From an uncultured cyanobacterium (GTDB lineage: Bacteria > Cyanobacteriota > Cyanobacteriia > Cyanobacteriales > Nostocaceae), in NCBI GenBank assembly GCA_963706595.1, contig OY970166.1, positions 2,880,001 to 2,944,000 of the forward strand: a stretch of 64,000 nt of DNA, given 5' to 3'. Under the pieces are notes generated by a model. It saw only the letters and a program-made list of their open reading frames with translations, was not told the origin of the DNA and searched no databases. Positions within the stretch are counted from its first letter, which is position 1. Every line of letters starts with the position of its first letter. Position numbers and translations under genes: made by a program. Shown piece after piece: positions 1,207 through 45,284 of this stretch.

Positions 1207-3444
1207 TTACATACAAGTCTGTACTAAAGGTAACAGCCGACCTATTTGTTCTTGACCATTTACGGCTAAGTCGCTGTGACATAAATAAACTTTTTCACCG
1301 ACACGAGACAGCAAATCTGCTAGGATATTTCGCAATCTTGCTTCTTCTAGCAAGTTTTCATCTGCTGCTGTCCACGGTTCGCCTAACCTATCTCTCAAAA
1401 ATAATGGCGCGGCAAATAACGTCGCTGCACCACCTTTTGCCCATAGAGGAGAACCAGCATCCAACCAGAAATGCCAACGGTGAAATCTTCTACTAGAGCG
1501 ATATTGAAAAATAGTTGCCAAGGTGACAGCTTTTCTAGCTGGTCCGATGGTACGCAAGGGGTAAGGGTTGGCGGTAATAGTACCACGTCGCAGTAAGTGT
1601 ATAAATTCGGCACAGGTTGTGCTGATTTCTTTCCCTGCTTTTCTGGGGGTTGTTTGTCGTAAACGGGTGTCAATTTCCCAATAATGTTGGGCAGTTTCCA
1701 GTAATTCCCGCAGTGCTGCCATTTGGTCGTAGGGAGGGCTGCTATCCTGACAGATAAAATTCTGCATTGCCAGATATAACAGCGAAATGGGACTGGGAAT
1801 CAAACGCTGTGCTTGTTGCGATCGCTGTTTTTCTAACCATTGTAAAATTTCCCCATAAGCTGTGGTGGCTGCATAGCCGATGCGGTCCCAGCGCTCGAAT
1901 GCTGAAACTGGTATCAAGTGGGGATGATCGGGATGAGGTTTAAAACAGTAATCTGTAATTAATCCGGCGCGTACTGGGTCGATGCGAGGGGAAGGAGACG
2001 CGATGAATTGATTGGGGGAAGGAGACGCGATGAATCGATTGGGGGAAGGAGACGCGATGAATCGATTGGGGGAAGGAGACGCGATGAATCGCGTCTCTAC
2101 AAGAGAGTCTGGTTTTCGACTCAAGACCACTAACATTTCGGCTACGGCTTCTCGATCTACGAGGCGACCTAAACCAGGATAGACTAGTGTCAGCATGGTG
2201 AGTAAGGCTCGAATCACAGGTGAACTAATTAAGGGGCGTTGCTCGTTGAGTGATTCGACGGGGATGTTTTGCTTATCGAGGATTTCTACTAAAGTATAAC
2301 GAGCGATCGCATCTAAACCCGGTGCAATAATTGCTACATCTTCTGCTTGTACTTGTCCTGAATTGATCGCTTTCGCAATTTCATCTGCTGTTTTCCGCAA
2401 CAATTCGGAGCGGGAGGTAGTTTGAATTAATTGCACTGGGTCTGGTAAGCTCGACACCATCATCTGTTCGGTGACTAACTCCACCATTGGGGTCAAAAGT
2501 TCCTCGGCTAGACAAGGTAAAGGTGATGTCGTTAATGTCTCAATTTGACAACGCGTTGCTAAACCCTTCAAATAGTGAGGATCGGCTCCCAATCCTAGCC
2601 GCACAGCACCATCAGGGTTATAACTAAAAGCACCTACAGCACCTTGATCTAACAAAAAATCAAACAGTTGACGTGCTACCCCAGGATAATCATCCACATC
2701 ATCTGCTAGTACAGCTTGATAGCGTTGAGTTAAGTGTTGTTGATAATGGCGATCGCTTAATAACTTCTGACTATACAGTTCAGTCATTATCCCATAACTA
2801 AGTAATCCCCGTTCTAAACACCAGTTACGCCAATCTAGTAATAAAGATGCCAAAAAATCCGGTTCTAAATCTATGGCATTTTCTTCTAAGCCCGTTTGCA
2901 AAATCCGGCTAATGTCTTCACAGGGTGTACCACTGTAAGCCGCCAATTGGAATAAATCCAGAATCCGACGGACTAACCGATACTCATTCACTCCCGCCCG
3001 GCGCAAAGTGGCTGCATCCAACTGGGAATGCCAAAGTTTCGTGGCCAATTCCTGTTCAGTTTCAGGGCGTAATCTTACCGGAAATTGTGCTTTGAGATTT
3101 AACGACTGAATCAATAAAGGCCAAAATAAAATCACTTCATCTTGAAAAAAACCGAGCATCGTCTTGGCACGAACTGGATATTTTCCTTGTGTTGCTGTCA
3201 CAATTTTATCAGCTAGATGACGGCGATTCTCACTATTGGCAGCTAAAAGCAAAACTCCTAGCTCTTTCTTGGGGAGATATGAAGCTGCTGATATGCTCCT
3301 ACTTTTTGGCTCACTTGATTTTTTAGTATAAAATAATTCAAAACTATGATTTTCACTTTGCACCCAATCACAAAAACTTTCCACCAAACGAGTTGTTTTA
3401 CCACTGCGGCTAGCACCAACAATCCAAATAGAATGAGAAATCAC
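1207..3444 (-). CDS. conserved cyanobacterial protein with N-terminal P-loop, SF1/UvrD-like helicase fold (possibly degenerate)
   Basis: 745-aa ORF; GASRSGKT Walker A; VLADDVDD Walker B-like segment; in-frame repeat insertion. Confidence 0.7.
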   Translation of the reverse strand: MISHSIWIVGASRSGKTTRLVESFCDWVQSENHSFELFYTKKSSEPKSRSISAASYLPKKELGVLLLAANSENRRHLADKIVTATQGKYPVRAKTMLGFFQDEVILFWPLLIQSLNLKAQFPVRLRPETEQELATKLWHSQLDAATLRRAGVNEYRLVRRILDLFQLAAYSGTPCEDISRILQTGLEENAIDLEPDFLASLLLDWRNWCLERGLLSYGIMTELYSQKLLSDRHYQQHLTQRYQAVLADDVDDYPGVARQLFDFLLDQGAVGAFSYNPDGAVRLGLGADPHYLKGLATRCQIETLTTSPLPCLAEELLTPMVELVTEQMMVSSLPDPVQLIQTTSRSELLRKTADEIAKAINSGQVQAEDVAIIAPGLDAIARYTLVEILDKQNIPVESLNEQRPLISSPVIRALLTMLTLVYPGLGRLVDREAVAEMLVVLSRKPDSLVETRFIASPSPNRFIASPSPNRFIASPSPNQFIASPSPRIDPVRAGLITDYCFKPHPDHPHLIPVSAFERWDRIGYAATTAYGEILQWLEKQRSQQAQRLIPSPISLLYLAMQNFICQDSSPPYDQMAALRELLETAQHYWEIDTRLRQTTPRKAGKEISTTCAEFIHLLRRGTITANPYPLRTIGPARKAVTLATIFQYRSSRRFHRWHFWLDAGSPLWAKGGAATLFAAPLFLRDRLGEPWTAADENLLEEARLRNILADLLSRVGEKVYLCHSDLAVNGQEQIGRLLPLVQTCM
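1988..2100. repeat. 27-bp tandem repeat (about 4 units) derived from a GTAG-type palindrome, translated as RFIASPSPN
   Basis: Units ggggaaggagacgcgatgaatcgattg start at 1988, 2015, 2042, 2069; the last closes the palindrome gagacgcgatgaatcgcgtctc-tac. Confidence 0.9.
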
Positions 3445-3531: not shown

Positions 3532-4851
3532 ATGAAAATACCCATTTTTAGCCAAAGGATTTACCCTTTTTTACTCTCTGCTTACCGATGGTACTTACTC
3601 ACACCAGAGCGTTCACTAGAAGCAGCTTATCAGGCAGCATTACAGATTAAGCTCCTAGAAGAGGAACATTTTAATGGTAATAAAATAGACTTAAACTCAG
3701 CCATCTACAGTAACAGCGTGATGGATTATTTTGAGTCAGATTTAAAGCGACAATTAAAAATTGCCCGGATGCGACTGACAGAGTTTCGAGCCAGTCGTTT
3801 GTTTTCTAATGAGTCTGATCAAAGAGCATCTCAGAAAACAGGTATAGAGTATCCTAGTCCTGCCTTAATTTTAGAGAAATTAGAATTCATTGATCAAGTT
3901 ACCTCAAAATATAATAACTTAGAAAACGAGATCAATTCCGCAGCTTTAGTAAATAAACCTCAAATTATTAAAGTCGATTCGCCTACCTCTGAATCATCAC
4001 CAGAGAAATTAGCCAATCAAAATCAAGACCCGAATAAAAAACAGCGAGGTAAGGCTGATACAATGGGAATATTGCCGAGGTCAATTTTAAGTACCATCGG
4101 CCGTCTGCAAGTGGAATTAGATCCGAATGCTGAACAAGATGTTGTTAAAAATTTCCGTCAGACTCAAAGAAGAACCATAATATCTATTAGATTTATTTTA
4201 CTATTAATTATAGTCCCTCTGTTAACTCATCAAATATCAAAGGTATTAATAGTAGGACCCCTAATCACCCATTTTAGAAGCCCCGAAACAGCAGAAATAT
4301 TTCTCAATCTGGAAATGGAGGAAGAAGCATTAGTAGAACTGCAAAGATTTGAAGAAAAAATCAAGTTTAAAAACCTAATTAGTAGCGCCCCTCCGCTATC
4401 TGCTGAAGAGATAGAAGTTGAGATTGCGGATAAAGCCCGTGAAATTGCTGAACAATTTCGTCGCCAAAGTGCTAACGCTATAAAAAATGTTTTTTCAGAT
4501 ATTTTCTCAGTTGGTGCTTTTATTTATCTGTTGGTAATCAGCAAGTCTTCTATCGCCGTCCTCAAAGATTTCTTTGATCATATTGTCTATGGTCTCAGTG
4601 ACAGCGCTAAAGCATTTATCATTATTTTATTTACCGATGTATTTGTCGGATTTCACTCTCCCCACGGCTGGGAAGTAATTTTAGAAGGTGTATCACGTCA
4701 TTGGGGCTTACCAGCAAATCGAGATTTCATCTTCTTATTTATTGCCACCTTTCCCGTGATTTTAGATACAATCTTTAAATATTGGATTTTCCGTTATTTA
4801 AACCGCATCTCACCTTCCGCAGTGGCTACATATCGGAATATGAATGAATAA
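3532..4851 (+). CDS. pxcA: proton extrusion protein PcxA (CemA family)
   Basis: C-terminal CemA motifs SDSAKAFIIILFTDVFVGFHSPHGWE and FPVILDTIFKYWIFRYLNRISPS. Confidence 0.95.
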   Translation: MKIPIFSQRIYPFLLSAYRWYLLTPERSLEAAYQAALQIKLLEEEHFNGNKIDLNSAIYSNSVMDYFESDLKRQLKIARMRLTEFRASRLFSNESDQRASQKTGIEYPSPALILEKLEFIDQVTSKYNNLENEINSAALVNKPQIIKVDSPTSESSPEKLANQNQDPNKKQRGKADTMGILPRSILSTIGRLQVELDPNAEQDVVKNFRQTQRRTIISIRFILLLIIVPLLTHQISKVLIVGPLITHFRSPETAEIFLNLEMEEEALVELQRFEEKIKFKNLISSAPPLSAEEIEVEIADKAREIAEQFRRQSANAIKNVFSDIFSVGAFIYLLVISKSSIAVLKDFFDHIVYGLSDSAKAFIIILFTDVFVGFHSPHGWEVILEGVSRHWGLPANRDFIFLFIATFPVILDTIFKYWIFRYLNRISPSAVATYRNMNE

Positions 4852-4952
4852 CAGAAATCACATAGGCAAATACATGAAGCCAGATAAAAGAAACTCCAGA
4901 ATTAGCAAAATAAAAAGTCAGAATCGCGGATTATAAGGATTACACAGATTAC

Positions 4953-5244
4953 GCGGATTAGATTATCTGACACAGTGACAGATAATTAAAATCAGTGAAA
5001 TCCTTTAATCCGTCTAATCCGTGATGCGGATTAGATTATCTGATACAGTGACAGATAATTAAAATCAGTGAAATCCTTTAATCCGTCTAATCCGTGATGC
5101 GGATTAGATTATCTGATACAGTGACAGATAATTAAAATCAGTGAAATCCTTTAATCCGTCTAATCCGTGATGCGGATTAGATTATCTGATACAGTGACAG
5201 ACAAGTAAAATCAGTGAAATCCTTTAATCCCTCTAATCCGTGAT
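4953..5244. repeat. 4 x 73-bp tandem array of a hairpin-forming unit, abutting the GxxExxY start codon
   Basis: Units start at 4953, 5026, 5099, 5172; units 2 and 3 identical, unit 1 has 1 difference, unit 4 has 3; internal attatctg/cagataat stem. Confidence 0.95.
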
Positions 5245-5628
5245 ATGAACTTAAAATACCAAGACATTACCCAAAAAATTATCGGCGCATCCTTTGAAGT
5301 CCATAAATTTCTAGGTAACGGCTTTCAAGAAGTAATTTATCAACGCGCCCTTGCCTACGAACTCCATCAAGCAGGATTAACCTTTGCCAGAGAAATTGAA
5401 CAACAAATCTATTACAAAAACCTACCCGAACCAATTGGTACACGCCGCGCCGATTTTGTGGTTGAAGAAAAAGTATTAGTCGAACTCAAAGCAGTAATCC
5501 AACTCGAAGACGTACACCTAGCCCAAGCATTAAACTATCTCAAAGTATATAAACTCGAAGTTGGATTATTGATTAACTTTGGAAGTAAAAGTTTGACATT
5601 TAAGAGATTAGTATTTAGTAACAAATAA
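5245..5628 (+). CDS. GxxExxY protein (PD-(D/E)xK nuclease-like fold)
   Basis: GFQEVIY motif; RADFVVEEKVLVELK; AQALNYLK...GLLINFG; 127 aa. Confidence 0.92.
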   Translation: MNLKYQDITQKIIGASFEVHKFLGNGFQEVIYQRALAYELHQAGLTFAREIEQQIYYKNLPEPIGTRRADFVVEEKVLVELKAVIQLEDVHLAQALNYLKVYKLEVGLLINFGSKSLTFKRLVFSNK

Positions 5629-5632
5629 AAGA

Positions 5633-5741
5633 GTCAGAATCGCGGATTATATGGATTACGCTGATTACACAGATTTTTTTCATTTGCTAAGATAACCAAA
5701 ATCTGTGAAATCCTTTCATCCGTAAAATCTGTGATTCTAAC
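5633..5741. repeat. long imperfect hairpin element related to the one upstream of the GxxExxY gene
   Basis: Starts gtcagaatcgcggattata as at 4917; 9-nt periodic gatt left arm, aatc right arm; ends gattctaac. Confidence 0.85.
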
Positions 5742-5832
5742 CTTGTTTTTAGCTATTCACACATGACTCAGGCTTACTCAGGAGAAATTGGAAAGGCCGC
5801 CACACCCTCAGACGAAAGCAGCGTGGGGTAGT

Positions 5833-7147
5833 TCAAGTAGTATATTCTGCGTTAATTTTTACATAGTCATAACTCAAATCACATCCCCAAGCTTTACCAG
5901 AACCATGACCATTACCAACGTTAACAGCAATAATCACGGGATTATCGACTCGTTGACCTTTAATCATGCTTCTATCCACAGACAAATCATTACTATTATT
6001 AGTAGCAATAAAATCTGGGGCTAAAGAAGAATCAGCCGCAATTTGTTTTAAATATGCACTGGCTGCTGCACGGTCAAATGGTACTGGTTGACCATTTTCT
6101 AATAATAAGAAATCCCCTAATTTTATTTGCAGGTTATCTTGTTCAAAATTCACACCTGCACGTCCTGCGGCGGCGGCGATACGTCCCCAATTGGGGTCGC
6201 GTCCAAAAATCGCAGATTTAACTAGAGAGGAACCCGCAACGGTTTTCGCAATTTGACGGGCGGAAACTTGATCATAAGCCCCAGTGACTTGCACTTCAAT
6301 TAAGCAAGTTGCACCTTCGCCATCACGAGCGATCGCTTTAGCTAAATGCTGACATACTGCTGTTAACATCGCTTCTAATTTCTCGGCTTCTGGACCCATT
6401 TCGGTAATTGCTGGGGTGCGAGATTGACCATTAGCCAAAGCGATTAAACTATCGTTAGTGCTGGTGTCACCATCGACGGTAATGGCATTAAAGCTTTGAT
6501 CCGCAGCCCTACTTAACATTTGTTGCCACAGATGAGATGAAACCGCCGCATCACAGGTTACAAATGCCAACATCGTGGCCATGTTGGGATGAATCATCCC
6601 CGAACCTTTGGAAATACCACCAATTCGCACAGGGCGATCGCCTATAGTTGTCTCTAAAGCAATGGATTTTGTCACCAAATCTGTAGTAATAATTGCCACG
6701 GCGGCTGCATCTGAACCCGTTTCTGAAAGTGCGGCCACTACTTTGGGAATACCACTGCGTAAGGCATCCATCTTGATCCGTTGACCAATTACGCCCGTAG
6801 AAGCCAGCAAAATCGATTCCGGGGAAATATTCAACTCCCGTGCTAATATTTCGGCTGTTTCTTCCGCATCCCGTACACCTTGCATCCCTGTGGAAGCATT
6901 TGCTTGACCAGCATTGCAGAGAATTGCACGGGCGCTGTGTTTAGCTTGTAAGCGTTGACGACAATAATCTACACAGGCGGCTTTGACTTGACTAGTGGTG
7001 AATACACCAGTCTGCGATCGCCTCTACATCTGACCATATTAACGCTAAATCGGGCAACCCCGAAGGCTTCAGTCCTGCGGTGATTCCCGCCGCCTGATAA
7101 CCTCTTGGTGCGGTAACACCACCAGAGATTTCTTGCCAATCTGCCAT
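5833..7147 (-). pseudogene. argJ: bifunctional ornithine acetyltransferase/N-acetylglutamate synthase; +1 frameshift at about 7011 (probably a sequencing error)
   Basis: MADWQEISGGVTAPRGYQAAG from 7147; KGSGMIHPNMATML, DGDTSTND, GCDLSYDYVKINAEYTT; removing one base restores a 437-aa frame. Confidence 0.9.
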
Positions 7148-29287: not shown

Positions 29288-29645
29288 AAATTATGTTTGG
29301 CTAACTCTTGCAGATCCTTTTATCTTTAGGGTAGACCGAGATTTTGGCTTCTCTCCTAAAGAAGACCTTAAGAGTTGAATAAACTGCAAAAATTTACATT
29401 TAGCACAAAGAATTAATTGTGGCAAGTTTGATTATGCGATTACAGCGATTTTTAGCTAAATAAACCACATCTTTATATCTCACGCAAAGGCGCAAAGGCG
29501 CAAAGGAAGAAAGAAAGACAGATATCGGCGCGTGTTTTAAATACCTGAAAACTGCTGTAATTTCTGTCAATTAGAGGATGATTTCACTGTCTCCACTGTT
29601 TTAGACATAGTAGAAGGTGGGCAAAGGTGCAGCAGGAGAGCGCAG

Positions 29646-45169: not shown

Positions 45170-45284
45170 ACAAGCGAGGAGGGGAGAATATGAGACAGAA
45201 AATCTCTGAAACTTTCATTACTCTGTGTTCTCTGCGTCCTCTGTGGTTCGTTCTTTCATAAAAATCAGAGGAAAGCGCCAAGAA

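Follow-up and report, generated by a model that had tools for sequence, protein, structure and literature searches.

A GxxExxY nuclease-fold gene paired with cognate repeat arms in a cyanobacterial pxcA-argJ spacer: a candidate selfish DNA element

Introduction

Between the host genes pxcA and argJ of an uncultured cyanobacterium lies a small gene of the GxxExxY family, with hairpin-forming repeats on either side. Do gene and repeats belong together, and if so, what kind of unit do they form? An earlier note on this DNA had likened the arrangement to RAYT transposases and the palindromes that flank them. The family in question is large, with at least 8,000 matches among those listed, and the accessible part of one survey (PMC3424549) enters it as 'function unknown' with multiple transfers. 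Here we analyse the locus within a stretch of 64,000 nucleotides (the window) of a host genome assembly that consists of one contig of 5.57 Mb, and follow the gene and its repeats through congeners and more distant homologues.

Results

Architecture of the locus

The features of the locus are as follows.

3532..4851, plus strand: pxcA (CemA PF03040 and PcxA NCBIfam matches), the left host gene, outside the element
4877..4916, plus strand: remnant of 40 nt from the 3' end of an EVE-domain gene, by sequence match to an ORF of the relative G002
4917..5025, plus strand: hairpin A, with left arm, loop and right arm
4953..5244, plus strand: four tandem 73-nt units, by repeat comparison, the first of them inside hairpin A
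5245..5628, plus strand: GxxExxY gene, 127 aa, PD-(D/E)XK fold (PF13366 and TIGR04256 profiles)
5633..5741, plus strand: hairpin B, a complete 109-nt element with both ends (GTCAGAATC ... GATTCTAAC)
5833..7147, minus strand: argJ, the right host gene, outside the element; frame shifted near 7011

Both flanks of the gene had been said to begin identically and in the same orientation, and a 19-nt string is indeed common to 4917 and 5633; the two starts fall into one repeat family (D3) with 84% identity over 57 nt. The left arm of hairpin A opens with the end GTCAGAATC and continues with GAT-ending words at a spacing of ~9 nt. Hairpin B, whose loop differs from that of hairpin A, is the complete hairpin of ~109 bp that the earlier note had described: as RNA, 5633-5741 is predicted to form a single long hairpin (-42.3 kcal/mol, z -7.9, equalled by none of 200 shuffles). 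The upstream flank had likewise been read as one hairpin. Its fold is strong (4910-5030, -38.9, z -6.0), but the inner 73 nt, made up of the inner left word, the loop and the right arm of hairpin A, are repeated four times in tandem. These copies are 94-99% alike, and the last, which is without the terminal TTC(T/A)GAC-type end, directly adjoins the ATG of the GxxExxY gene. A scan found no terminator-like site in 4700-5900 and one promoter-like site versus 3.9 in shuffles.

Profile matches confirm that pxcA and argJ are convergent and flank the cassette. In G002, an EVE ORF of 94 aa lies directly 5' of hairpin A, and sequence comparison identifies 4877-4916 as the end of this ORF after an internal deletion. 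The proposed position between the two host genes thus holds, but the cassette was not inserted there alone, because a remnant of an EVE-domain gene lies alongside it.

Within argJ itself, one extra base near 7011 is missing from four RNA-run contig sets and relatives have a full argJ ORF of 423-439 aa; the frameshift is probably an assembly error. Small in-frame elements also come and go within argJ: at 5962-6024 an in-frame stretch of 63 nt is replaced by 21 other bases in RNA-run contigs, and at 6636 the gene is without a 21-nt insertion that is present in those contigs. Elsewhere in the window, an ORF of 745 aa (1207-3444, minus strand) contains four tandem 27-nt coding copies (RFIASPSPN) at ~1980-2110.

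A conserved protein of the PD-(D/E)XK superfamily

The ORF scored 126 bits against PF13366 (PDDEXK_3; cut-off 22) and 134 bits against TIGR04256 (cut-off 35). In an alignment of 106 sequences, D70, E80 and K82 were invariant, as were G26, E29, Y32 and N111, with Q94 and Y98 nearly so. Profile scores and invariant triad bear out the previous assignment as a GxxExxY protein with a PD-(D/E)XK fold. Where dS was measurable, dN/dS was ~0.04-0.13, and the gene is under purifying selection with its PD-(D/E)XK residues intact.

A structure model reached a pLDDT of 94.5; a single-sequence fold (pLDDT 37.9) was discarded. The two top fold matches were Cas4 SSO0001 (PDB 4ic1; Foldseek E 8e-4, Z 8.5, rmsd 3.1, 102 aligned residues) and the BpuSI nuclease domain (PDB 3s1s; Z 8.6, rmsd 2.5, 94 aligned residues), both only slightly ahead of numerous other PD-(D/E)XK domains, and splicing endonucleases were among the weaker matches. 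As predicted, the model places the protein in the PD-(D/E)XK superfamily, which speaks to its fold and not to its function. Searching solved structures with the 106-row profile gave no sequence match, and a homodimer prediction score of 0.00 counts neither way.

Arms accompany the gene across phyla

We took the 80 closest GTDB homologues (63-97% identity), 72 of them with full flanks; they span cyanobacteria, Bacteroidota, Poribacteria, Latescibacterota, Nitrospirae, Chloroflexi, Fibrobacteres and others, and the closest, with 97% protein identity, has the same hairpins. An arm consists of a fixed end (~16 bp, GTCTGAATCACGGATT-like in this clade) and about three degenerate words, C-R-C-N-R-A-(G/T), spaced by 8-10 nt, a form common to all arms examined. 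Inverted pairs of arms enclose either the gene or, in what would be non-autonomous copies, a short loop; other arms stand singly. In 50 of the 72 loci the strict arm motif lay no more than 250 nt from the gene, and in 38 it was present on both sides. Its density per kb was 3.4 near the gene, 0.054 more than 600 nt away and 0.005 in this genome, and the enrichment adjoining the gene is 60-fold; the flanks of homologues are thus enriched in the hairpin family, as the earlier note had proposed to check.

A sequence-blind test gave the same picture, with an inverted repeat spanning the gene in 151/196 loci versus 7/300 random ORFs of this genome. By set, these were 43/74 closest homologues, 47/49 family-level TIGR04256 loci (from 50 loci taken out of 295 matches, with a bias towards high scores) and 61/73 paralogue-fetched loci (from a set of 81). 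Repeat type also tracked protein clade. In a quick tree of 203 proteins, GAT arms filled one supported branch of 85 rows (82 GAT and 3 unclassified) that held none of the 115 AG-type rows, and the labels changed 7 times versus 68.8 times when shuffled; sampling was centred on the query, most GAT rows are its relatives, and the arm classes are regular expressions of our own making. Cyanobacterial and Bacteroidota copies with 84-89% protein identity carry the same arms. Among mobile replicons, matches were found in none of 50,697 phage records, in one viral contig and in 6 of 72,556 plasmid records.

The left arm adjoins or overlaps the start codon of the GxxExxY gene. At the right end, a start codon lies within 6 nt in only 5 of 67 arm pairs, and the left end coincides with the end of a long ORF in 18 of the 67, a count without a control. 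Because every computable prediction held, the supposed RAYT-like pairing of a small nuclease gene with its own repeat family is, at the level of sequence, well supported as an association.

Presence, absence and exchange at fixed sites

Among 10 relatives, the pxcA-argJ site holds the gene with both hairpins in five (G002, G003, G006, G007 and G008), hairpins only in one and neither in four. Hence the gene-free site that the earlier note had suggested looking for exists in 5 of 10 relatives; in G010 the gene is gone and the two hairpins are fused. In G007 a contig break falls inside hairpin B, and in G002 pxcA is located elsewhere. Hairpin B is 94-98% identical and in the same place in G002, G003, G006, G008 and G010. 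The 73-nt unit is present 1, 1, 2, 2, 4 and 5 times in G006, G007, G003, G008, G000 and G002, respectively, and hairpin A is inverted in G006.

In G003 and G007, pxcA and hairpin A are ~7.5 kb apart, and the interval encodes two proteins, a PLD-SNF2 helicase and a restriction-methyltransferase of type IIG. G003 has additional hairpins between these two genes, and the last codons and stop of its methyltransferase gene lie in hairpin A. Taken together with the 40-nt EVE remnant, this island indicates that the cassette arrived with a restriction island that has since been deleted in this genome, where the cassette is a recent acquisition. Comparison of filled and empty alleles at pxcA-argJ gave no clean target duplication; the insertion junction is unreadable there because the empty alleles differ wholesale past the pxcA stop codon. 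The same site in G001 carries a 177-aa P-loop gene with an AG-type left arm 5' of it (L009:924-1457), and remnants of this gene persist in G004, G005 and G009.

Gene-less copies of the repeat, which had been suggested as something to count, were found at two other sites in this genome. One site has two tandem copies between two genes that we take, from their translations, to be rpoB and rpoC1. The other has one copy 3' of a gene for 329 aa, in which the left part and loop of hairpin A are fused to hairpin B; it is the cassette without its gene. Both sites are filled in G000, G002, G007 and G008, which may be one lineage, and the other 7 of 11 congeners have plain heptamer arrays there. The A-B fusion occurs at one other site in G000, G007 and G008, with a further one in G007. 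An apparent duplication of 3-5 nt at the two solo sites is ambiguous: as the junctions fall inside heptamer arrays, it is indistinguishable from the array.

This genome also has two GxxExxY paralogues, each inside a single inverted repeat of the AG word type. At the valS site the gene is present in 11/11 congeners with three arm types, and both arms change along with the protein (64-99% identity), with one hybrid. The ureB-ureC site has the gene in 7/11, arm remnants in 2/11 and another ORF in 2/11. Doublets of AG-type words number 625 in this genome versus 102 for a reversed control; they form 339 clusters, most of them confined to one strand and only 19 on both strands. Within the window, such doublets lie at 225, 29483-29491 and 45236-45245.

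Two further arrangements were observed. In G010, the valS-site locus (L393, G010:C122:82300-89900) has five cargo genes 3' of the GxxExxY gene, two of which we take to be McrB/McrC-like. The cargo starts after the right arm of the GxxExxY gene and is closed by another right arm, which is of a different type and lies 3' of a copy of the GxxExxY gene's last codons; the last cargo gene ends with these codons. Tandem arrays of hairpins or arms, with 5-6 units of 72-127 nt, occur at L040, L041 (G023), L099, L133 and L146.

Arms in genomes without a close gene

Among 151 family genomes, at least four arm matches were found in 13/18 genomes with a close-clade gene versus 9/119 without, and at least six in 9/18 versus 8/119, counts that are inflated by the arms flanking the genes and come from related genomes that are not independent. 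Reversed-pattern controls gave at most two matches per genome. G023 has 46 arm matches and no close gene by this query, and G053 and G064 have 9-10 arm matches with no TIGR04256 match found. About 50 near-identical matches each were present in G091 and G129; most of the 30 loci examined (L313-L342) are single left arms, not hairpins, set within CCAATTA-type heptamer arrays at the 3' ends of genes, and could be explained by passive gene conversion. Hairpins also adjoin unrelated genes.

Duplicated gene ends in Bacteroidota

A long direct duplication adjoins both ends in 11 of 71 left-right arm pairs (0/213 in shuffles). Three of the 11 are tandem hairpins and eight are the last ~91 bp of one gene family (6 loci), by its motifs presumably histidine-kinase-like. 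A looser search, which leaves out L132 and L134, brought in three further kinase loci and, from other families, the start of one gene (24 bp) and the end of another (~63 bp), all family names being our assignments from motifs. The duplications are 20-94 nt long, diverged and confined to a minority of loci. Some of them exceed 30 bp. The window itself has no gene-end duplication of this kind.

Three adjacent kinase paralogues of G173 have arrays of element plus 91-bp copy at their ends. Any two of the five non-genic copies are set apart by 8-16 synonymous and 0-4 non-synonymous codon differences. That these differences are almost only synonymous suggests repeated homology-guided integration. 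The outermost 91-bp copy is decayed in two gene-bearing arrays (G173 and G174), and one single downstream copy is intact. Such arrays would be unlike decayed target duplications and would rather resemble functional ends displaced by incoming units. As all kinase cases have one junction in common, they may stem from one founding event, followed by plain recombination among tandem paralogues.

A second small palindromic element is present in Bacteroidota: at L391 and L392, short in-frame insertions (...LSAGQAG... / CLPDRQ) are found in kinase genes, and also within an arm.

The arms at the DNA and RNA level

An excess of G.U pairs on the sense strand was absent, with 51 versus 60 at 38 GAT loci and 92 versus 123 at 77 AG loci. 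In arm pairs chosen by their end motif, variable positions paired at 0.44 within loci versus 0.39 across loci, a difference reached in 2 of 2,000 permutations. Rfam gave two chance-level matches below the gathering score. Assembled RNA-run contigs cover the GxxExxY gene in 4/4 runs and are silent on level, strand and ends; a gene-removing joint was not found in the contigs of these four runs. The earlier proposal that the repeat acts as RNA is not borne out by the missing G.U bias and the weak covariation. The conserved feature is the inverted word array, an arrangement more in keeping with sites for protein binding on DNA than with an RNA stem under selection.

Discussion

A selfish element and its alternatives

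On balance, we think that the locus holds a selfish DNA element, in which a GxxExxY nuclease gene and its cognate arms would be spread by host recombination. The pairing of gene and arms, its clade specificity, presence, absence and swapping at fixed sites, the gene-deleted derivative and the conserved active site are observed; that the nuclease binds and cuts the arms, and that this action causes the rearrangements, is what we infer from them. In such a model, the GxxExxY protein would bind the word arrays on DNA and nick or cut at or near the arm ends. Host recombination would then repair the break via multi-copy homology flanking the arm, which would be the heptamer arrays in these cyanobacteria and paralogous gene ends in Bacteroidota, and repair would copy, duplicate, invert or delete the DNA bounded by the arms. 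A circle or fragment that carries a piece of a host gene end may integrate and push the old end downstream. At pxcA-argJ, the cassette would have come at the tail of the helicase and type IIG restriction island, later deleted, hairpin A would have been amplified in tandem, and gene-less derivatives would have seeded the two other sites.

We put forward a broader version only tentatively. GxxExxY genes might constitute a class of mobile elements without transposase, integrase or reverse transcriptase, in which the nuclease cuts its own arms and the piece of host DNA on the released unit guides integration, through host recombination, into homologous targets present in several copies; the 3' end of the target gene would be replaced, and old gene ends would stack behind the element in a polar array. 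If so, the element would also shuffle gene ends and ferry defence cargo between phyla.

The arms might, in a rather unlikely alternative, be operator-like binding sites without self-mobilisation, serving autoregulation or a host service such as the marking or processing of incoming DNA, with all rearrangements passive. Conserved words with weakly pairing spacers (0.44 versus 0.39) would be expected of binding sites, as would a left arm at or over the start codon; the gene at the valS site in 11/11 congeners, a family member in 125/151 family genomes and the excess of AG-type doublets (625 versus 102), mostly on one strand per cluster, also speak for it. By itself, however, this explanation leaves unaccounted for the gene-deleted derivatives at new sites, the cross-phylum transfer with intact arms and the repeated capture of functional gene ends, and the strict conservation of the active site speaks against it.

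That the cassette is a defence or addiction module, with a nuclease toxin checked by the repeat (as RNA or DNA) and protecting or stabilising restriction islands, seems improbable to us. The restriction-type neighbourhood on which the earlier note's defence claim would lean is real: PLD-SNF2 helicase, type IIG restriction-methyltransferase and EVE gene were neighbours of the cassette, many homologues adjoin what we take, by motifs, to be restriction-modification-like genes, and tandem repeats 5' of a small nuclease recall the layout of type III toxin-antitoxin systems. Yet the protein is without a PADLOC match, the upstream repeat number varies from 1 to 5 with one allele inverted, the gene was cleanly lost in G010 while the hairpins remain, and most members sit in one inverted pair beside housekeeping genes (valS, ureB/ureC).

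We consider it quite improbable that the element works at the RNA level, its arm stem being processed, as in ORF-bearing rRNA intervening sequences, or repressing translation. Both hairpins here are predicted to fold strongly, slightly better on the coding strand, and the splicing endonucleases among the weaker fold matches would suit an RNA-processing enzyme; the sense strand, however, has no G.U excess, hairpin A is inverted in G006, no Rfam family comes near its gathering score, and the location is outside rRNA genes. Coincidence, with independent repeats and an orphan gene accumulating in the same variable spacers, is very improbable, for although these spacers hold many other repeats and arms exist without the gene, it is largely refuted by the 60-fold enrichment, by 151/196 versus 7/300 loci and by clade-specific arm words across phyla.

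With the selfish-element reading, a very large family of unknown function gains a candidate cognate substrate, and three arm types with their proteins at one site in one genus offer built-in swap controls. Should it be true, it would explain a large class of intergenic word repeats, such as the 625 AG-type doublets here, and bacteria would have an additional route, independent of classical recombinases, by which gene ends and defence genes are duplicated and exchanged. Should the protein prove inactive on the arms, the finding would be an unexplained association of gene and repeat.

Comparison with known systems

The closest likeness raised at the outset is to REPIN-RAYT and TIRYT systems. As described in the accessible parts of the sources (10.1101/2021.07.10.451892, PMC6006769, PMC3733652), these combine a low-copy nuclease gene with cognate flanking palindromic repeats, and TIRYT genes lie within terminal inverted repeats; gene-less repeats occur elsewhere and repeat type follows enzyme clade. 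The enzymes differ, the RAYT protein being a Y1 HUH transposase whereas the GxxExxY protein is of the PD-(D/E)XK type and matches only PF13366 and TIGR04256. In addition, GxxExxY arms are periodic word arrays without the GTAG/CGTC tag of REPINs, and the gene crosses between phyla, in contrast to REPINs, whose inheritance is described as vertical.

Furuta, Abe and Kobayashi (2010; PMC2853133) described, in the portion accessible, restriction-modification genes that lie between inverted repeats or were inserted with a long target duplication. These likewise are nuclease genes lacking a transposase or integrase, with imperfect inverted repeats or long, variable direct duplications at their borders, and the arm word has 14 matches in what was available of the supplement (PMC2853133), so that it may overlap the inverted-repeat list given there. 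The GxxExxY unit, in contrast, is without a methyltransferase, its arms belong to a single conserved family of many copies that includes gene-less ones, and its linked duplicated ends differ synonymously and stack into arrays.

Like IS elements with MITE derivatives, the GxxExxY element has terminal inverted ends and internally deleted derivatives at new sites, flush against genes. Some IS elements also make long variable duplications (IS1549, IS1634). The GxxExxY element, however, has no DDE transposase, its single ORF being PF13366; no constant target duplication was found, and it occurs as 1-5 gene copies per genome at different sites and with different arms. Integron cassette arrays, too, have imperfect direct-orientation hairpins between genes and stack in a polar manner, and GxxExxY loci share such hairpins between the genes of a variable island and an apparent polar stacking of units. 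GxxExxY hairpins differ in that they also wrap the gene as one inverted pair, and no integron integrase was seen among the ORFs at the loci examined. The ORF-bearing intervening sequences of 23S rRNA, as far as covered in the accessible part of PMC4990558, resemble the element in that a long inverted repeat carries a small ORF in its loop; the GxxExxY element lies outside rRNA, shows no RNA-strand bias and encodes a nuclease, not a four-helix protein.

By the features tested, the locus is none of the following: a type III toxin-antitoxin system (no ToxN/CptN/TenpN family match, no terminator in 4700-5900), an IS (the only ORF is PF13366, with no DDE transposase), an rRNA intervening sequence (it lies between pxcA and argJ, with no G.U bias) and a restriction-modification-type insertion with long target duplication (no M gene within the unit).

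Cas4 or RecB-like and restriction-type domains (4ic1, 3s1s) have the fold and the D-x-E-x-K and QxxxY motifs in common with the GxxExxY protein, which is only 17-20% identical to them and without the Fe-S cluster cysteines. Small cyanobacterial repeats, reportedly treated by Elhai et al. in 2008, may include some of the arm words. We found no description of the gene-arm pairing in the literature searched, most subscription papers lying outside its scope, and this family of gene-plus-repeat elements is apparently undescribed so far. Judged by its profile matches and conserved residues, it appears to be the enzyme that sets the GxxExxY element apart from every family considered here.
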